Below are positions 12,016-21,980 of a DNA stretch of 64,000 nt, piece by piece. Position numbers and translations under genes: made by a program. The notes beneath the pieces are model-generated. The model was not told where the DNA came from. It worked only from the letters and a program-made list of their open reading frames with translations, and made no database searches. The stretch is from Candidatus Poribacteria bacterium (GTDB lineage: Bacteria; Poribacteria; WGA-4E; WGA-3G): NCBI GenBank assembly GCA_964291315.2, contig OZ219753.1, forward strand, positions 2,912,001-2,976,000. Direction: 5' to 3'. Every line of letters starts with the position of its first letter. Positions within the stretch are counted from its first letter, which is position 1.

Positions 12016-12849
12016 ATGAGCAACCGAAACAAGGATGCAGAGTACACAATGGGGCGCAGTGAGAGCGAGACACAGCGTCTAATGGAGCAATCGCAGCTTT
12101 ATGATGACATAACACGTCGCTTTTTCCTTAGAAGCGGCATCGACAAAGGCATGAAAGTTCTTGATGTTGGAAGTGGTGCTGGCGATGTCGCTTTGACTCT
12201 TGCTGAATGTGTCGCCTCCGGTGGAACTGTAGTCAGCGTAGATGTCAACCCTGATGTCGTCAAAACTGCACAGGGGCGAGCGGAGGCAGCGGGTTATTCG
12301 AACATAGAGTTTATTGTGGGCGATATCCGAACCCTTGAACTCCCCAATGACTTCGATGCGGTTGTAGGAAGACTCGTTCTGATGTATATAGCAGATCCGT
12401 CGGAGCTCCTCAGGCATTTGGCAACACGGTTGAAACCCGGTGGAATTCTCGGCTTTCAGGAAGGCGATTTTAGACTTCATGCAGGGATGGCGCATCCTGA
12501 TACACCGTTCGCAAATCAATTGATTGAATGGGGAAGGGCTGTATTTGAACGCTCAGGGGCACATATGGAGATGGGTATAGACCTTTATAAGGCGTTCGTT
12601 AATGCTGGTCTACCTGAACCTGCCTTACATTTTGAGGCACTGATGGGTGGCCCCAACGACTGGCCCGGGTACGAGTATCTTGCTAACACCTTTAGAAGTC
12701 TTGTTCCACTGATAGAGGCGTATGGTATTGCTACCGCTGATGAGGTGGATGTAGATACGATTACTGAACGTCTGCAAGCAGAAGTTGCTGTAACGAAACG
12801 CCCGTTTGTATTACCTCCGCATGTCACTGCCCATACGTCAGTGGGATAA
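12016..12849 (+). CDS. Class I SAM-dependent methyltransferase (copy 1)
   Basis: VLDVGSGAGDV, FDAVVGRLVLMY, LKPGG. Confidence 0.9.
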   Translation: MSNRNKDAEYTMGRSESETQRLMEQSQLYDDITRRFFLRSGIDKGMKVLDVGSGAGDVALTLAECVASGGTVVSVDVNPDVVKTAQGRAEAAGYSNIEFIVGDIRTLELPNDFDAVVGRLVLMYIADPSELLRHLATRLKPGGILGFQEGDFRLHAGMAHPDTPFANQLIEWGRAVFERSGAHMEMGIDLYKAFVNAGLPEPALHFEALMGGPNDWPGYEYLANTFRSLVPLIEAYGIATADEVDVDTITERLQAEVAVTKRPFVLPPHVTAHTSVG

Positions 12850-12885
12850 ACAGAAAAGAGCGTTCTAAAAGAGAAGGCTGCGTGC

Positions 12886-13746
12886 ATGACGAAGCATAGG
12901 TCAAAAAACTTAAGCCTATTTAATCGAGATGCTACCTATACATTAGGTCGCACCTCACATGAAACGACACGCCTCATTGAGCAATCCAGGATTTATGGAG
13001 AGTCAACATGGCGTTTCTGTAAACGGGCGGGTATTACTGCGGGGATGCATGTGCTTGAGATCGGCAGTGGTGCCGGTGACGTTGCTCTTGCCCTCGCTGA
13101 ACTCGTTGGGTCGACCGGGCGTGTCGTTGGTGTAGATGTGAATGCGAGCATTCTCGACACGGCTCGGCGGCGTGCTGCTGCTGCTGACATGCAAAACGTT
13201 GAATTTGTTGCTGGTGATGCCCGGACGGTTGATTTTTCGAACAAGTTTGATGCAGTTGTTGGACGGTTTGTCCTGATGTACTTGGCTGATCCTCGGAAGG
13301 CGTTGGCGAGTTTCATAACACAGGTAAAGCCTGGTGGTATTGTCGCGTTCCAGGAGCCGGAGTATACGCTCTATCCTGCTTTTTTTCACCGGGATACGCC
13401 GCTCATGAACCAACTGATTGAATGGATCGTAAACGTATTTGAACGGTCAAGGGCACATCTTGACACAGGGATTGGGCTTTATCGGATTTTCGTGGATGCA
13501 GGTTTGCCTGCTCCGTCGATGCACCTTCAGTCTCCGATAGGTGCTGGGGAAGAATGGGTAGGGTACCGGTATATGGTAACCATTTTCCAAAGTCTTCTTC
13601 CGCTCCTTGAGAAATATGGGCTTGCAACGGCGGAGCAGGTTGATGTAGATACGTTAGGAGAACGCCTCCGTCAAGAGTCTCTGACATCAAAGCGCCCTTT
13701 CTTCTTACCGCTACATGTAACAGCACACGCTGTGCTTCCAACCTAA
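12886..13746 (+). CDS. Class I SAM-dependent methyltransferase (copy 2, paralog)
   Basis: VLEIGSGAGDV, FDAVVGRFVLMY, VKPGG; colinear with the upstream gene. Confidence 0.9.
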   Translation: MTKHRSKNLSLFNRDATYTLGRTSHETTRLIEQSRIYGESTWRFCKRAGITAGMHVLEIGSGAGDVALALAELVGSTGRVVGVDVNASILDTARRRAAAADMQNVEFVAGDARTVDFSNKFDAVVGRFVLMYLADPRKALASFITQVKPGGIVAFQEPEYTLYPAFFHRDTPLMNQLIEWIVNVFERSRAHLDTGIGLYRIFVDAGLPAPSMHLQSPIGAGEEWVGYRYMVTIFQSLLPLLEKYGLATAEQVDVDTLGERLRQESLTSKRPFFLPLHVTAHAVLPT

Positions 13747-13786: not shown

Positions 13787-16760
13787 CTATAGAGAATGCC
13801 TTGGGTCTGCCAAACTATGCAGGCTCATCACCTCATTGCCGCGCGGGTCGATGACTTTGACTGCGACCTGTTTATACGGTCCAGAACGGAACGGAAACGA
13901 CGTTGTACCACTGAACCGCTCAAACTGCTCTTCGTCAATAACGCCTTTCAAGGCACGGGCGATCTTCTGCCACGCCGTCTTGTCCGGGAAGAAGGCTTGC
14001 GTGATGCAGAACGTGCGTCCATCGTAGTCGGTATCCACAAACCACGCCGCCACCTTATCCGCACCCGCAGAACGCACGGTGTTGTCTGACGGGTCGTAGA
14101 TGTCCACGCCCTCCATCTTGACAATATATTCCTCTTCGCCGGCTTCCTCAAGGGTCGTGCGCGGCATTCCGAAGACGGTAAAGAGTTGCGTTGAGGGTGT
14201 CTGCTTGAGGAGTCCGCCCATTGCGACGTCGGGGTTGATGTGTGCCATGTGGATACGGACCCTGGGGTTCGGATCGTCTTGGATAACTGCTTGTGCCGCG
14301 CCGTCAAAACTGAACCCTGCGAAGACGAGTTCATCGTAGCCGCGGCGGGAGGCGATGGGCAGACACGCCTCGACTTGCATTGCGGTGATGGGGCCGTGCT
14401 GTGGTCCAAATGCGACAGCGACGGAGGATTCGGTATCGTAGTGTTTCCAAGTGCCTTCTGCGTGGAGGATATCGGCTTCGAGCGGGTCGAGGGTGTCGAA
14501 TTTCAAGGTGTTGTTATTAGTGAATCGCACGCCGTCGTGTCGGAGGTGATGTATCATCTGTTCGAGGTATGCCTCGGCATTGATCAGTTCGTGCGTGTCA
14601 GTTTGTGTGTCAAAAGTGTCTTCGCTTTCTGTGGGTTGTGCTGCGCTGGGCGGATCAAGGTCAAGTGATTCCTCTGCGGGTTGCACTGCCTCTACGGTGA
14701 AGGGACCGGTGACGCGCACTCGTTTTCTGTCGATGTGTGGCTGATCGACAAGTTCTTCGGTTTCAGATGCTGCGGCGATGCATGCGTTGATGTCGTGCAT
14801 CTTTGCTTGCCACGCTTTGCGGTAGTCTACGAGAGCGTGTTGTAGTGTTTTTGGCCAGTCGGGGTCTGTATCGAAGGGTACTTGCCAGTCGTTCCAGCGT
14901 GTATCTGGTAGCTGCCAGCGTCTTTTATCTGCGTCTGTGATAGCAGTTTTGCCGTGTTTTTTCTGTTTATCGGTGAGTTTTGCAAGGAGTTTTATGCGAA
15001 GCGGGGGGGGTAATCTGTGATAAGTTGTTGTTCAAAGCATCTAACTTCTCTTTCAATATCGGCTCATGCTTGGCAAATATCGGATCCAGGGCAGTGTTTT
15101 GAGCGATACTTTTGAGGGTGATATGTGGAACCTGTTTATTGATGAAACCACCCACGATGCCTTTTGACTCATCCTTGAGTTTGTAGTAATCAAAGGCTCC
15201 TGTCAATAAGCGTTGTCGGGCTAAGGCGACAGCCACGCGGCTGGTATCAATTGTTATCCAGCGCCTGCCCCACTGCTCGGCAACATAGGCGGTGCTGCCG
15301 CTTCCACAAGTTGGATCGAGGACAAGATCTCCAGGATCTGTGGTCATGAGAAGGCAGCGTTCAATGACTTTTGTTGAGGTTTGAACAACATAGTTAGGTC
15401 TAGCTTCACCAGTTGTGTCACTCCAAAAATTATTTATTCTTCTTCGTGGTACATCTTCCCAAAAAACAAACGCCCGTAACCGTCCGCTATCTGGCAAATG
15501 TAACCTTTGGGACTTCTCCAATCTCGGGATGGCAGATTCAGGATCAAATGACCATTGAGCGTTTTGACCTGGTAATATTTTACGATTGCGCAGAATTATT
15601 TCTCCACTTCTTACATCGCTCGGATGTTGACTTATTACGCGATCCGCCGACGTACACCATTTTCCGCCTTGTTCTAACAACTCAATTTCCTCAGCCTCAC
15701 TTATGGGTTTCACGAGTTCTCCGTATTGTGTCAAAATTCGGTTATAAGTTTTATCATCGGGTCGCTGGTTACTGTGTGTCAATGTTCCGTAAAGGTTATG
15801 TAATTTGGATTCGCTTTTATTTTTCGCGTAATGCAATATATAATCGTTAATTGCTTGTCCAGGGTTTGTGAAGTTTTTCTTTTTAAAAACAATAGCAGCA
15901 AAAGAATTTTCGTTTCCAAATACCTCGTCCATAATACACCGCACCCGATGCACGTTCTCATCTCCTATCTGCACAAAAATACTGCCGCTATCTGTCAACA
16001 ATTCCTTCGCAACAATCAACCGATCCCGCAGATACGCAAGATATGAGTGGATACCCAAACGCCACGTATCCCGATACGCCTTGATCTGCTCACGCTCACG
16101 CGTCAAGTCCTGCGGACGCTCTCTTACATCCCGCTGAAAAGTACTCGGTTGAAAGTTAGACGCAAACTTGATGCCATACGGCGGGTCTATGTAGATCATC
16201 TGCACCTTGCCACCGAGATTTTCACGTTGTGCAAGGGAACTCATCACCGTGAGACTATCCCCAAGAATGAGACGATTTGCCCAATCCACATCGTGCTGGT
16301 AAAAGTCAACGGCTGTGCTATAATCCTGCTGCGGGTCAGCGAAGAGTTCACGTTGGACGTTTTGGCGCTTTGCGGTTTTCAAGATTGCCTTGCTGCTGAT
16401 GCGTTCGTGGATGTGGAGTGCCACGGGGTCGACGCTGAAGGTTGCGTTCTCCTGTTTGCCTGTCCATTCAAGCCAGGGGGCGTGGTGTCGGAGTGCCTCG
16501 GCGAGCGTCTTGGCCTCCTCTGCGGAGAGGGCGCGTTGCTGTGCAATATGGAGAAATTCGGGGAGTTTGTCTGCATGTGCGTCTGGGTCGGATCGGAGAC
16601 TCGGTGGCAGGTGTGGGTTGTAGGCGTATTGTCGTTTCGGGGGCTCTTGGAGCTTCCCTTGTGCGGCGATGCCTGCGGGCGGGTTATTCTTTCGGGTAGC
16701 GCTGCCGTGTCGGTAGTCTCGGACCTCTTTTGGCTTAGCAGTGCGTTTCTTTTTTGACAT
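13787..16760 (-). pseudogene. Type III Mod-like amino (N6-adenine) DNA methyltransferase, frameshifted at a C8 tract (ORF halves 14967..16760 and 13787..14800)
   Basis: NRLILGDSL, YIDPPYG (motif IV), VLDPTCGSG (motif I), C-terminal VKVIDPRGNE; deleting one G from 15003-15010 joins the halves into a 990-aa frame. Confidence 0.85.
15003..15010. repeat. G8/C8 homopolymer at the methyltransferase frameshift
   Basis: Sequence gc-gggggggg-taat at 15001-15014. Confidence 0.9.
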
Positions 16761-16962
16761 TCTAGGACCTCTTTATGGAAATTCAATGGGTAAGTTGGTA
16801 ATGAGCCCTCTCGTTTTTTAAACACAAAACACAAATCCGTAGTATAATAATATATGATACCAAATTCTTGAAATAGGAATCAAGGATAAAGTAATCGCGC
16901 CCTTCCCGTTTGTGGTCGTGGATGCGTATAATAAATTTAAGGAAAAATAAAGGGATTTTTGT

Positions 16963-18009
16963 ATGGCTGATTTGAGAAATACTATTGCACACATCCTCGA
17001 ACACGAACAACGCTTGGAGAACGCCAATGAAGCAACCACCCAACAATACGTCGTTTTACCAATCCTACGGGCTTTGGGGTGGAACGATGCGAACTTAGTA
17101 TCTATGGAAATTCTACCAGAATGGACGATTGAAAGTAGAAGAGCTGATTACGCTTTACGTCTCCCAAAAGAAGAGAACCTTGTTGGACTGATCGAATGCA
17201 AACGGTGGGATCAAACAATCGGAAAGGACGGAGAACAAATTTACTGTTACGCCTGTATTGGAAATGTCCCGCTGGCGATAATTACAAACGGCAAACTTTG
17301 GCAGTTTTACCTCTCTCGGTGGGAAGGCTCAAGTTTGAGCGATAGAATTTTTTGTGAAACGAACATTGAAAACCGAGAAGAGGCTATTTCCGATTTGGAG
17401 AAATATCTCCTGAAATCGAATGTGGCATCAGGTGCCGCGGAGTTAGAGGCCGAAATAGCTTTGGAAGAAAGGCAGCAACCCGCTTCTTACGAGTCTAAAC
17501 CGGTTGATTCTAAAATTGACCTTACTCCCGGCCTGCTTGACAGGACATCAGCAACAAAGCAACCTCAGGTGTCTGCTAACCCTAGCCAAGAGTGGACAAT
17601 GGAACAGATTAGAAATTCAGTACCCAAAGAGGTAAGGGGCTACCAGGAAAAATACTGTGAAAAAAGGCAGCAACTGTTTTATAGAGCGGTTGCTGATGTA
17701 TTGAATTTGATTAAAGAGGAATGGGAATTAGAGCTAAAGTTCAGGAAAAGCTACTGTGGTTTTTTTCTTGAAAATCATAGAAGAGCTACGCGAATAAGTA
17801 GAATATTTGGTATTACTTTTACTGTGCAGCCGAGGCTCTTTGTCCGAATAATGAAAGAAGAGGCAGAGAAATTGGAACGTCAGTATGGATGTGAATTTTG
17901 TCCTGTTGATAAGCCTGAAGTAGACTACATTGATTACGATATCCCCGATAACATCACAATCCTTCGACCTGTACTTGAATTTGCTTACAAAAAACATAGG
18001 AAAGATTGA
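16963..18009 (+). CDS. HsdR N-terminal-like PD-(D/E)xK nuclease with DUF5655-like C-terminal domain (copy 1)
   Basis: NEATT...VLPILRALGW, PE...RADYAL, LIECK, Q...Y, ITNGKLW; no helicase motifs. Confidence 0.8.
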   Translation: MADLRNTIAHILEHEQRLENANEATTQQYVVLPILRALGWNDANLVSMEILPEWTIESRRADYALRLPKEENLVGLIECKRWDQTIGKDGEQIYCYACIGNVPLAIITNGKLWQFYLSRWEGSSLSDRIFCETNIENREEAISDLEKYLLKSNVASGAAELEAEIALEERQQPASYESKPVDSKIDLTPGLLDRTSATKQPQVSANPSQEWTMEQIRNSVPKEVRGYQEKYCEKRQQLFYRAVADVLNLIKEEWELELKFRKSYCGFFLENHRRATRISRIFGITFTVQPRLFVRIMKEEAEKLERQYGCEFCPVDKPEVDYIDYDIPDNITILRPVLEFAYKKHRKD

Positions 18010-19439
18010 TTTCGATACGTCTCCGCTCAAGCACTTCTCTGCCAACCTATTCAAAAGCATAGACATCAGTTCTTGATTTCTTATGCTATCTGCATAAATT
18101 AACATAGGAGAGGCGCTGATGAAACTGGCTAAATTGTCTGTGCTGATTGCATTGTTTGGTGCTGTCAGTTTTTATTTTTCAATAGGTATTGCTACAGCAG
18201 TAGTGGCTGATTTGAGAAACACTATTGCCCACATTCTCGAACACGAACAACATTTGGAGAAAGCCAATGAGGCAACCACCCAACAATACGTCGTTTTACC
18301 AATCCTACGGGCTCTGGGGTGGAACGATACAAACTTAGTATCTATGGAAATTCTACCAGAATGGAAGATTGAAAGTAAAAGAGCTGATTATGCCTTACGC
18401 CCCCAACGCGAGCGGAACCTTGTTGTACTGATCGAATGCAAACGGTGGGATCAAGCAATCGGAAAGAACGAAGAACAAATTTGCTTTTACGCCTATAGCG
18501 GAAATGTCCCGCTGGCGATAATTACAAACGGCAAACTTTGGCGGTTTTACCTCTCTCGGTGGGAGGCTCCAAGTTTGAGCGATAGAATTTTTTGTGAAAC
18601 GAACATTGAAAACCGAGAGAGTGCCATTTCCGATTTGGAGAAATATCTCCTGAAAACGAATGTGGCATCCGGGGCCGCGGAGTTAGAGGCCGAAACAGCG
18701 TTGGAAGAAAGTCAGAAATCTGCTTCTTACGAGTCTAAACCGGTTGATTCTAAAATTGACCTTACTCCCGGCCTGCTTGACAGGACATCAGCAACAAAGC
18801 AACCTCAGGTGTCTGCTAACCCTAGCCAAGGATGGACAATGGAACGGATTAGAAATTCAGTACCTAAAGAGGTAAGGGGCTACTACCAAGAAAAATACAA
18901 TAAACAAAGGCGGGACCTGTTTTATAAAAGGGTTGCCGATGTATCGAATTTGATTGAAGAGGAATGGGAATTAGAGCTAAAGTTCAGACAAAACTACTGT
19001 GGTTTTTTTCTTAAAAATCATAGAAGAGCTACGCGAATAAGTAGAATATTTGGTATTACTTTTACTGTGCAGCCGAGACTCTCTGTCCGAATAAGCAAGG
19101 GAGAAGCAGAGCAAATGGAGCGTCAGCATGGGTGTAAATTTTATGCGGTTAGAAAAGACCACATTTATTACGATATCTCTGATAATCCCGCATCCCTTCG
19201 ACCTGTACTTGAATTCGCTTATAAAAAACATAGCAAACCTTAACGCCGATATGTCTCCGCTCAAGCACTTCTCTGCTAGCCTGCCGAAATGCATGGACAT
19301 CAGTTCTTAATTCTGTTATACTATCTGCACAAATTAACATAGGGAGAGATGCTAATGAAATTGGCTAAATTGTTTGTGCTGATTGCATTGTTTGGTGCTG
19401 TCAGTTTTTGCTTTACAACAGGCATCGCTGCAGCAGTAG
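16964..19439 (+). repeat. Tandem duplication, unit ~1.24 kb (nuclease gene + intergenic + first ~28 codons of next gene)
   Basis: 16964-18202 aligns with 18204-19439; 17482-17590 identical to 18722-18830. Confidence 0.9.
18119..19243 (+). CDS. HsdR N-terminal-like nuclease (copy 2) with N-terminal signal peptide
   Basis: Paralog of 16963..18009 preceded in frame by MKLAKLSVLIALFGAVSFYFSIGIATAV; AGGAG RBS. Confidence 0.8.
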   Translation: MKLAKLSVLIALFGAVSFYFSIGIATAVVADLRNTIAHILEHEQHLEKANEATTQQYVVLPILRALGWNDTNLVSMEILPEWKIESKRADYALRPQRERNLVVLIECKRWDQAIGKNEEQICFYAYSGNVPLAIITNGKLWRFYLSRWEAPSLSDRIFCETNIENRESAISDLEKYLLKTNVASGAAELEAETALEESQKSASYESKPVDSKIDLTPGLLDRTSATKQPQVSANPSQGWTMERIRNSVPKEVRGYYQEKYNKQRRDLFYKRVADVSNLIEEEWELELKFRQNYCGFFLKNHRRATRISRIFGITFTVQPRLSVRISKGEAEQMERQHGCKFYAVRKDHIYYDISDNPASLRPVLEFAYKKHSKP

Positions 19440-20086
19440 ACGAATGGATATTTGTTGAGTTAGAAGAAAAGTCAAACACAAAATTGGTTGATCATGAGTG
19501 GTGGACGAAGGCTAAGGGTGACAGTACCCTCTCTCGGCTGCCTATCGGTGAAACGGCAGATTTTGAGGGGCCTGATGGGAAAGTCAAATTCCGGATTATA
19601 GATGGTGCGATCGTGGTTTTCGGTACCAATGCTGCGGAATGGCCCAAGGCAGTCGAAGGCGTAGTTGTTGAAGGCAAAGCACAATTCATCTATTTTCTTC
19701 ACGCAACCGGATGGGAACAGGACGGCGTTCCGAGCTATCTGTTCGTGATGAACTACCGAGATGGGAAAAAGGAAGAACTTGAGATGATTTCGGGCTTCAA
19801 CTCTGATGATTGGTGCCACGATGATACACCGCTCCAAGACGATAACTCTGTCTGGGGATGGGTGATGAAAGAGGGTCCCCCTTGTGGACATGCAGGATTG
19901 ATTACGACGAAATGGGAAAACCCGCGCCCGGATATCTGGATCGATACCATAGATGTCGTTTCCCTGGAATTGGGGCCAGTCCCTGTCATCCCAGCTATTA
20001 CGCTGGGCGAAGCGACCCTTGATGTAGAACCGACGAGGAAATTGTCGGTTACTTGGGGGAGTTTGAAGGATGCACGTGGATTTTAA
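19349..20086 (+). CDS. Secreted hypothetical beta-sandwich protein with Poribacteria-type C-terminal tail
   Basis: Signal peptide, IYFLHATGW, KWENPRPD..I..I, tail VEPTRKLSVTWGSLK; start 19349 or 19355. Confidence 0.75.
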   Translation: MLMKLAKLFVLIALFGAVSFCFTTGIAAAVDEWIFVELEEKSNTKLVDHEWWTKAKGDSTLSRLPIGETADFEGPDGKVKFRIIDGAIVVFGTNAAEWPKAVEGVVVEGKAQFIYFLHATGWEQDGVPSYLFVMNYRDGKKEELEMISGFNSDDWCHDDTPLQDDNSVWGWVMKEGPPCGHAGLITTKWENPRPDIWIDTIDVVSLELGPVPVIPAITLGEATLDVEPTRKLSVTWGSLKDARGF

Positions 20087-20119
20087 GGGCAGGTGTTTGG
20101 TGATTGATTTACTAAAAAA

Positions 20120-20148
20120 TTGACTTTGTGTATTGGACATGCTATAAT
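20120..20148 (+). promoter_or_regulatory. Sigma70-type promoter of groEL
   Basis: TTGACT-17 nt-TATAAT with extended -10 TG. Confidence 0.65.
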
Positions 20149-20183
20149 TATAACAGCGATTTTTAAGTGCAATATCTTGCTTT

Positions 20184-20296
20184 ATAACTTGAGCTTGATA
20201 AATATTTGGTTCATCTTTGGGCAAAGAGAGCTCTTGCGCAGACTAACGGTCTATGCTATAAACAGAGGTTATCCAATCTTTTTAAGCTTAAGTTAT
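20184..20296. mobile_element. MITE-like element with terminal inverted repeats
   Basis: ATAACTTGAGCTTGA / TTAAGCTTAAGTTAT (13/15); related to 30467-30653. Confidence 0.55.
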
Positions 20297-20342
20297 TTTA
20301 TATTTAACATTACAACATTAAAACAGATATAGGAGGAATTCG

Positions 20343-21980
20343 ATGCCAGCAAAGCAAATTATTTTCGATGAAGAAGCGAGGGCGGCGCTCAAACGCGGTG
20401 CAGACACCCTCGCTGGTGCGGTGAAGGTAACTCTTGGCCCTCGCGGAAGAAATGTCGTGATTCAAAAATCTTTCGGTGCCCCGCTGGTAACTTGTGATGG
20501 TGTTACCGTCGCAAAAGAAATTGAACTCTCGGACCCATACGAAAATATGGGTGCTCAACTGCTTGAATCCATCGCAACGAAAACAAACGATGTGGCTGGA
20601 GATGGAACGACAACTGCAACCGTGTTGGGTCAGGAAATTCTTCATGAGGGGCTCAAGAATGTCACAGCCGGTGCTGATCCGATGCAGCTAAAAATCGGTA
20701 TAGACAAAGCTGTAACAGCTGCAGTTGACGCAATTGCTTCCCAGAGTCGTGCTGTTAGCACCCACGACGAAATCCTACAGGTCGCTTCAATAGCTGCAAA
20801 CGATCCTGCAAACGACAGCGACATTGGGACTATCGTTGCTGAAGCGATTGAAAAGGTTGGAAAAGATGGGGCGATTACTATTGAAGAGGGCAGAACTTCA
20901 GAAACTACAGTTGATATTGTGGAAGGAATGCAGTTTGACCGCGGTTTCCTGTCGCCAAACTTCGTAACGGATGTCCAGGAACAGGTTGTTGAATTTGAGA
21001 ATCCATATATTCTCATTAACACCGAGAAGATTAGTTCCGTCACGAACCTACTGCCGATTATGGAAAAGGCGATGCAGCTGGGTAGGCCTCTTTTCATTAT
21101 TGCCGAAGATGTTGAAGGAGAAGCACTCTCTACATTGGTAGTGAACAAACTTCGCGGAACGCTTCAGGTAGCTGCAGTGAAAGCCCCTGGCTTTGGGGAT
21201 CGACGGAAAGAGATCTTGGAGGACATCGCGATCCTTACAGATGGACAGGTCATATCCGAGGAAGCCGGCATCCGCTTGGAAAACATCGTTGTAGGTATGC
21301 TGGGTACAGCACGGCGTGTGGTCGTAGACAAGGACAACACCACGATTGTCGGCGGTAGTGGTGCCAAAGAGAATGTTGAGGGACGGGTAGCCCAGATTCG
21401 TAGACAAATAGAAGAGACAACTTCCGAATACGATCGCGAGAAGTTAGAAGAACGTCTCGCTAAGCTTGCTGGCGGTGTTGCTGTTGTTAATGTAGGAGCT
21501 GCTACGGAAGTGGAGATGAAAGAGAAAAAGGCGAGATTTGAAGACGCTCTGGCTGCAACGCGCGCCGCTATTGAGGAAGGGATCGTTCCGGGTGGCGGTA
21601 CGGCGCTTCTGCGAGCATCTGCAGCTCTCGGTTCCCTAGAATTAGAGGATGATCAAAATATCGGACTCAATATTATCCGGAGGAGTCTCCTCTCACCTGT
21701 GCGTGCGATTGCAGAGAATGCGGGATGGGAAGGGGCAGTGGTTCTCGCCAAGGTCCAAGAAGGCGAAGGTAGTTACGGCTTTGATGCATCAACATCTGAA
21801 TATGCAGACATGCTTGAATCAGGAATAGTAGATCCAACAAAAGTGGTCCGGTCGGCGCTACAGAACGCCTCTAGTATTGCCGGTTTGCTTCTGACTACCG
21901 AGACGCTCGTCACAGAGGTCGAGGAGCCGCCGGTTCCTGCTTCTGCTGCAGCTGATCCGCATGCGGGACACTTCCATTAG
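20343..21980 (+). CDS. groL: Chaperonin GroEL (Cpn60) with His-rich tail
   Basis: [48 protein letters not shown]; AGGAGG RBS. Confidence 0.97.

Follow-up and report, generated by a model that had tools for sequence, protein, structure and literature searches.

A tandem duplication joined a signal peptide in frame to an HsdR_N-type nuclease in Candidatus Poribacteria

The DNA discussed here is a 64,000-nt stretch (the window; positions 2,912,001 to 2,976,000 of contig OZ219753.1, assembly GCA_964291315.2) from Candidatus Poribacteria. Its subject is a pair of tandem nuclease genes that precede the gene for a conserved secreted protein. A tandem duplication created an in-frame chimera of signal peptide and nuclease at this locus, and both parent genes have been retained beside the chimera at the duplication joint. 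The first nuclease gene (nuc1; 16963..18009) is unfused, whereas the second (nuc2) begins with the signal peptide of the secreted protein. All features lie on the forward strand unless stated otherwise. Judged by the substitutions in the two copies, the fused nuclease has the better-kept nuclease domain and looks like a replacement of its parent, not like one half of a cytoplasmic and periplasmic pair.

The duplication and its joint

The duplication consists of unit 1 (16964..18203, 1240 nt) and unit 2 (18204..19439, 1236 nt), which abut head to tail with no gap and are 88.4% identical over 1247 alignment columns. Each unit contains the nuclease gene from the second base of its ATG, the intergenic region with promoter and ribosome site, and the first 85 nt of the downstream secreted gene (19355..20086). 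At the joint, 28 codons from the start of the secreted gene are in frame with nuclease codon 1 by way of GTG (18203..18205), which occupies the position of the ancestral Met1 of the nuclease and is a possible weak internal start. The resulting open reading frame (ORF; 18119..19243) encodes 374 aa with the catalytic motif intact. An earlier sequence-only reading of the window had proposed a tandem duplication of about 1.24 kb with an in-frame fusion, and the capture of a signal peptide by it; both are borne out.

The captured segment (18119..18202) is predicted to be a Sec/SPI-type signal peptide. Its layout is basic, then hydrophobic, then AxA (the n, h and c regions), and cleavage is predicted after A-T-A at residue 27, a site placed by the AxA rule and by comparison with the donor N-termini of 44 orthologues. 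The breakpoint lies one codon past this predicted site and at nuclease codon 1. By heuristic scoring the mature N-terminus is compatible with export, and its first 18 residues have a net charge of -2. The fusion N-terminus is 82% identical to that of the secreted protein, and the two signal peptides differ at five amino acids. Two of the fusion residues, S7 and T26, are the states of close relatives, meaning that the donor changed there and the fusion did not. The dN/dS of the peptide is 0.40 (five nonsynonymous and four synonymous changes), a sample too small for use. The peptide seems to have met few mutations since the duplication, and its integrity is a weak test of maintenance. It had been claimed that the fusion is intact although the copies have diverged. 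This is correct for the reading frame, whereas for the peptide it says little.

There is no microhomology in register at the join (0 bp), and nearby matches of 3-4 bp (GTA, ATGG) give out-of-frame joins. The join was either blunt or formed through microhomology and then followed by a frame-restoring indel. Tandem duplications are frequent in this genome, with 40 loci of at least 300 nt, 27 of which have at least 80% identity. A crude geometric estimate puts the chance of so neat a join, in frame and with a complete signal, at about 1e-3 per duplication. A scan of many windows will meet such a join, and the informative part is that the junction has persisted.

Persistence was assessed with short-read contigs of four runs (X1 to X4; four samples from one study) aligned to 16300-20500 at 88% likeness. 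X1 may be the source sample. One of its contigs bridges the junction (18153-18301) with no differences and a depth of 997, close to the sum of two haplotypes (depths of about 590 and about 430); at least two are present at the locus in this run. In X3, the junction is bridged (17829-18459) by a contig of 936 nt that shows 40 differences and a single gap in intergenic DNA; this strain is about 6% diverged. Among the pieces listed for X2 and X4, none bridges the junction. Only contig joints were used as evidence; the absence of cover over 17005-17568 in X3 and X4 was left aside, as was the near-zero cover of the junction in X4, which has low depth. The junction is common to strains about 6% diverged, and the duplication is not an assembly artefact. 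The sequence-only reading had itself raised the possibility that two strain haplotypes were assembled end to end. The haplotypes of X1 would lend this some colour, yet the junction lies inside short-read contigs of two samples, and the window lies inside a 3.26-Mb contig of a four-contig, 4.4-Mb assembly. Close homologues of the window are labelled Candidatus Poribacteria. This explanation is largely refuted and now extremely improbable.

The same contigs bear on the integrity of the fusion. No indel is listed inside 18119-19243 in any of the four runs, whereas intergenic DNA has several and copy 1 has two. The 20 listed variants within the fused ORF, which are unphased, introduce no stop codon among them. 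A cluster of 10 changes at 18401-18426 sets the window apart from the other strains.

The nuclease and the divergence of its two copies

The nuc1 protein (348 aa) consists of an HsdR_N/PD-(D/E)xK domain (about residues 1-170), a disordered linker and a MotCF/YjbR/CyaY-like C-terminal domain (about residues 208-348). The HSDR_N profile (PF04313) matches the two copies at 25.9 and 33.2 bits (cut-off 25.1), and it matches all 79 aligned homologues. In the predicted structure (pLDDT 74) the N-terminal domain is closest in fold to the nuclease domains of HsdR, BpuSI and DrdV (Z 9.1-10.1), the comparison with V. vulnificus HsdR (3h1t) giving Z 10.1 and rmsd 3.4 over 119 residues. Foldseek returned no match at E <= 0.001, its best being HsdR at 1.5e-3. 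Residues E23, D62, E78, K80, Q92 and Y96 (nuc1 numbering) are invariant in the 79 aligned proteins and present in both copies; those of the D, ExK and QxxxY motifs presumably have the catalytic roles familiar from this nuclease family.

The C-terminal domain resembles YdhG/frataxin, the T4 MotA C-terminal domain and YjbR in fold, with middling scores (Z 7.2-7.9). It matches no Pfam family, and its match to PADLOC PDC-S18 is weak (E 4e-8). In 13 of 60 distant homologues its place is taken by SRA, RAMA/DUF4357, SeqA, Mrr_N or DUF5655, and a protein atlas contains HSDR_N clusters with DUF5655 or DUF4268. Profile and fold together show an HsdR_N PD-(D/E)xK domain combined with an exchangeable domain, a candidate DNA reader. 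Some stand-alone relatives of this kind are labelled 'predicted type IV restriction endonuclease' by JGI. DUF4268 is described as accompanying type IV enzymes (PMC4619093) and as a part of the modification-dependent nucleases MdgA/B (PMC12366544). By its domain architecture the parent nuclease is most likely a type IV-like, modification-dependent anti-phage enzyme, with the C-terminal domain as candidate reader. A type I HsdR subunit was considered and rejected. The proteins have 346-348 aa in two domains, with no helicase motor and no HsdM/HsdS, and reach 15-17 bits where the cut-off is 550.

The two copies form a clade (SH-aLRT 98) in a quick nuclease tree of 59 rows, with a branch of 0.09 leading to the fused copy and one of 0.20 to nuc1. 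Between them dS is 0.19 and dN/dS is 0.49 overall. They share an identical run of 109 nt (17482..17590), a probable gene-conversion tract since random placement gives a median of 41 and none of 5000 shuffles reaches 109. A second identical run of 64 nt (17771-17834) covers a site (joint 17817-17829) at which the copy-1 allele of other strains is longer. Because of these conversion tracts, dS understates the age of the duplication. The idea that a new gene had been caught being born does not survive these observations. The junction is shared with a strain about 6% diverged, and a dS of about 0.2 has accumulated in spite of conversion.

Derived changes were polarised against 58 orthologues, with a conserved column defined by at least 90% of them. 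In the nuclease domain nuc1 has 17 derived changes, eight at conserved columns, whereas the fused copy has six, one of which is at a conserved column. The C-terminal domain shows the reverse, with 10 changes in nuc1 and 21 in the fused copy, and the domain-by-copy contrast is significant (Fisher P=0.005). The C-terminal changes of the fused copy mostly miss conserved columns (2/21) and include F293S at a mostly-Phe column. Over the whole protein, 3/28 changes of the fused copy fall at conserved columns (P=0.0004 if random), compared with 9/28 for nuc1 (P=0.21). Residues 89-99 of nuc1 (17227-17259), in the helix after ExK, carry six amino-acid changes from seven base changes, none of them synonymous, which possibly reflects decay or a change of specificity.

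One strain has gone further. In X2, 96 other letters stand between 16939 and 17593 in place of 16940..17592, and the start and catalytic domain of nuc1 are gone. Contig joints of X1 and X3 fit the same deletion haplotype, weakly, as they have 30 nt on one side. Greater damage to nuc1, together with loss of its nuclease half in one strain, suggests that the fused copy is replacing its parent. This goes against the earlier proposal that a cytoplasmic and an exported nuclease act as a pair.

Expression, export and the competing explanations

The fusion inherited its translation signals from the secreted gene. The copied Shine-Dalgarno sequence (18106..18113) precedes ATG 18119, where predicted pairing with the anti-Shine-Dalgarno is -8.1 kcal/mol. 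At GTG 18203 it is -3.8 kcal/mol, with a poor spacing of 15 nt. By the stronger pairing ATG 18119 is probably the main start and the fusion the likely main product, which favours the fusion in the choice of start codon left by the sequence-only reading. Promoter sites were judged by consensus match only. The promoter-like site of the secreted gene (19294..19322) is intact, with -35 TGGACA, a 17-nt spacer and a TG-extended -10 TATACT, and it is kept in about 37/44 orthologous upstream regions as counted by eye. In contrast, the copy before the fusion (18060..18087) has decayed. Its spacer is 16 nt instead of 17, the TG of the extended -10 is lost and the -10 is TATGCT. The X3 contigs have a 17-nt spacer in this copy. 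The nuc1 gene has its own promoter-like site at 16819-16848.

The donor gene encodes a conserved 243-aa secreted protein with a Poribacteria-type C-terminal motif. It was matched in 45/64 other genomes of the genus. The protein has no Pfam or NCBIfam match, and its predicted structure (pLDDT 46) is too poor for a fold search. The motif resembles Por-type sorting domains (PMC3909097). In a pattern scan it was found in the donor and 75/3293 ORFs of the genome and was absent from the fusion. Release of the fusion outside the cell is unlikely, and with no sorting motif export would end in the periplasm at most. The earlier suggestion of a secreted nuclease therefore has to be cut back to, at most, a periplasmic one. 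Apart from the fusion, 63 of the 75 motif-bearing ORFs carry a signal-like N-terminus, and the PorV family has 15 matches in the genome, four above the cut-off. A Por/T9SS-like sorting system in Poribacteria is possible on these patterns.

What might the fused copy do? The best candidate, tentative and a little short of probable, is expression capture, in which selection still acts on cytoplasmic, modification-dependent restriction and tolerates the signal peptide as a passenger. It starts from the short-junction duplication, itself shown, which copied an accessory stand-alone nuclease and, from the gene that follows, the promoter, the ribosome site and 28 codons. Purifying selection would then have continued on the nuclease domain of the fused copy, whereas the original copy drifted or was stripped of that domain, a step supported by moderate statistics. 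The job under selection would be the ancestral cutting of foreign DNA in the cytoplasm, driven by the expression signals of the neighbour. The active pool might be precursor that folds before Sec export, native-length product from the junction GTG, or both, with the peptide sending part of the enzyme to the periplasm.

Expression capture is favoured on the strength of precedents for unexported proteins, the GTG at the native start and the tolerance of the family for N-terminal additions. A signal peptide alone is described as exporting fast-folding thioredoxin poorly (PMC3646739), and cytoplasmic proteins given a signal peptide can, in the cases described, remain largely unexported (PMC3646739, PMC5468347). 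It also helps that the geometry is that of the nusG'-'sigH duplication of S. aureus (see below), and that the block of nuclease and secreted gene is separated here from its usual upstream NFACT operon.

Several observations weigh against expression capture and the replacement on which it builds. The captured promoter has decayed instead of being kept, nuc1 has a promoter-like site of its own, which makes the need for expression capture uncertain, and the ribosome site at GTG 18203 is poor. The signal peptide retains every export feature, where cytoplasmic selection might have broken it. The selection tests were chosen post hoc, and the direct contrast of hits at conserved columns is not significant (8/17 versus 1/6, P=0.34; 9/28 versus 3/28, P=0.10). 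The six nuc1 changes clustered at residues 89-99 may be a single event. Furthermore, nuc1 keeps all catalytic residues, with no copy-specific departure at 58 columns that are invariant among 18 orthologues. Finally, inter-copy dN/dS over the first 165 codons (0.38) exceeds the median of orthologue pairs (0.10; 141 pairs, mostly with dS >1).

Perhaps the fused gene is a neutral or near-neutral relic. Its exported product would be useless, and the ORF would be kept intact by gene conversion from the other copy and by allele exchange between strains, or unit 2 would be an intact foreign allele. This is a less likely account than expression capture, though one that explains a good deal. The nuclease appears dispensable at this slot in relatives (19 intact, 13 broken and 18 not found in 50 regions), conversion tracts are evident, and the cluster at 18401-18426 distinguishes the window from other strains. 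The decayed promoter copy and raised dN/dS fit as well. The lack of stop codons is weak evidence, because only about 2.6 would be expected (0.048 per substitution, about 54 substitutions per lineage), with a probability of about 0.07 of seeing none. However, conserved columns are largely spared by the changes of the fused copy (P=0.0004). Its cleanest part is the 5' nuclease domain, which is farthest from the conserved 3' flank that would anchor allele exchange, and nuc1, being more damaged in that domain, cannot have refreshed it there. The lack of listed indels in the fusion frame in four runs also argues against a relic.

The third explanation is selected relocation. The fusion would be exported by Sec, cleaved after A-T-A and active in the periplasm on incoming DNA, be it from phages, from plasmids or free, and its reader domain would be drifting to looser specificity. 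Many features of the gene are as they should be for this. The tripartite signal is intact, the breakpoint is one codon past the cleavage site, the mature N-terminus is negatively charged, the ribosome site at ATG 18119 is strong and a signal peptidase I gene is present in the genome. Conservation of the nuclease domain goes with 21 derived changes in the C-terminal domain, F293S included, where nuc1 has 10. The lack of in-register microhomology leaves room for an indel that restored the frame after an out-of-frame join. An envelope-located nuclease, Mpr of M. smegmatis, is described as able to confer phage resistance (PMC9262609).

Relocation is nonetheless doubtful. No second origin of the fusion has been found (see below), mutation has tested the peptide little since the duplication, the sorting motif is missing and the promoter is decayed. 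The C-terminal changes that might signal a new specificity mostly miss conserved columns. A further difficulty is that phage DNA is as a rule shielded inside a conduit on its way through the periplasm. The fuller version, in which the nuclease moved to the periplasm, replaced its cytoplasmic parent and was selected to cut foreign DNA before entry, with GTG perhaps giving exported and cytoplasmic forms, is likewise improbable.

The locus in relatives and beside known systems

The surroundings of the donor locus were compared in 48 genomes, which gave 50 regions. In 18 of these, three of them with little upstream DNA, no nuclease was found at the donor slot, and across the whole set the nuclease is not accompanied by any methyltransferase ORF cluster. 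None of the 50 has a duplicated or signal-fused nuclease. Matches across the junction are absent from all 64 other genomes of the genus, and no fusion of the junction type occurs in 34 further, largely overlapping loci. The query is the only one of 253 proteins with the nuclease N-terminal part to have a signal-like extension, and none was seen in 44 short hits. Metagenome contigs gave no match by protein or by a degenerate junction pattern, which says little, and viral contigs yielded no relative. The fusion, whose recurrence the sequence-only reading had proposed to check, appears to be lineage-specific, with a single origin at or below the species level.

Other N-terminal fusions of the nuclease do exist, with partners that have no part in export. 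A HicB-like domain is fused in frame at nuclease codons 1-3 in three proteins with two junction types (we take the PF05534 match of the fused partner to mean HicB-like), and one homologue carries a Swt1-HEPN-like/coiled-coil part N-terminally. Between NFACT and the secreted gene, different species have HicA/HicB, Uma2, IS605-type and nuclease genes, and nuclease chimeras arise repeatedly in this slot, with breakpoints at nuclease codons 1-3 or in the linker (L035:5454-6722 in G007; proteins P0011, P0022, P0089 and P0034; L039 and L044). Breakpoints cluster at the nuclease start, yet no repeat or recombinase was seen; an integron-like site was set aside with no dedicated follow-up. Remnants that retain only the C-terminal domain also recur (L040, L044, L078 and the X2 haplotype of copy 1). 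Such remnants might be expressed as reader domains, or they might simply have been left by deletions.

NFACT lies upstream in 42/50 regions, whereas here it is 857 kb away. Its operon's place is taken by a split type III methyltransferase (Mod) element (13787..16760, reverse strand), one of six copies in the genome. This is the copy upstream of nuc1, and NFACT here is followed by another copy of the same element. Recombination between Mod copies therefore probably moved the block of nuclease and secreted gene, judging from this arrangement. A partnership between the nuclease and the adjacent Mod gene was rejected, because the Mod element is split, has six copies and is not beside the nuclease in other species. 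The copies lie on C4 near 460 k, 1872 k, 2072-2075 k, 2573-2576 k, 2926-2929 k and 2992-2995 k. They are 90-94% identical with a variable middle. Both the copy in the window and the one at 2072 k are broken into two ORFs, and Mod may undergo phase variation or shuffling of its target domain.

Further duplications were noted elsewhere. Tandem genes for SAM-dependent methyltransferases (277 and 286 aa) at 12016-13746 of the window represent an older duplication. A family of 320-359-aa proteins forms three tandem arrays of two to three copies with 93-96% identity (C1 130369-132559, C4 841646-845220 and C4 946384-948666). There is also a triplet of DNA methyltransferase-like genes of about 400 aa (C4 1975995-1979619), and a tandem pair of 370-aa genes, 97% identical (C4 2845764-2848206), that presumably encodes the DNA polymerase III beta clamp.

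The closest parallel for the rearrangement comes from S. aureus, where nusG'-'sigH and rplK'-'sigH are described as in-frame chimeras made by tandem duplications of about 1.2 kb (1210 bp for nusG'-'sigH) that leave both parents intact, the chimera being driven by the promoter, ribosome site and start codon of the downstream gene (PMC3486894). Those duplications, as described, differ in having junction repeats of 7-8 bp, in being transient and laboratory-selected and in capturing cytoplasmic N-termini (PMC3486894). In contrast, the Poribacteria fusion lacks microhomology in register, has become fixed in strains that have since diverged and captured a whole signal peptide. For acquisition of the signal, the parallel is with Enterobacterales, in which 34 gain events, classified in the study concerned, likewise involve whole N-terminal peptides (PMC5952966). 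There, mostly ancient gains are reported, transposons were sought and not found, and the relevant part of the account names no donor or mechanism (PMC5952966). In Poribacteria the donor adjoins the recipient, and the gain occurred at or below the species level.

For the nuclease itself, type I HsdR and type IIG enzymes (EcoR124I HsdR, 3h1t, BpuSI, DrdV) share the nuclease fold and motif. The Poribacteria protein differs in having no helicase motor, methyltransferase or specificity subunit, and it falls far below the NCBIfam cut-offs. The stand-alone HSDR_N nucleases with reader domains (DUF5655, DUF4268, SRA, RAMA/DUF4357, SeqA or Mrr_N) share both the nuclease domain and the two-domain layout, but no other member examined has a signal peptide. 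MdgA and MdgB are described as single-gene nucleases with DUF4268 as candidate reader domain and activity against modified phage DNA (PMC12366544). They serve as a functional model for the parent gene, likened by description and not by sequence homology, and the account of them concerned describes no signal peptide (PMC12366544). Word searches of the open-access literature, several of them unspecific and with supplements outside their scope, found no HsdR_N nuclease that bears a signal. Whole-peptide signal gains were already documented; what is new is that the cargo is a full-length defence-type nuclease and that there are signs of the fused copy displacing its parent.

Signal-peptide gains are known comparatively, but seldom can the donor and the event be seen. 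In this genome the donor, the junction, the parent copy and strain variants are all at hand. The locus is thus a natural construct for asking whether a restriction-type nuclease can protect a Gram-negative cell from the periplasm. If relocation were true, this would be a natural extracytoplasmic restriction enzyme whose origin can be read base by base. If the signal is only a passenger, the locus would still show, as a fixed natural case, a defence gene that captured expression signals through a short-junction duplication, a useful example rather than a surprising one.

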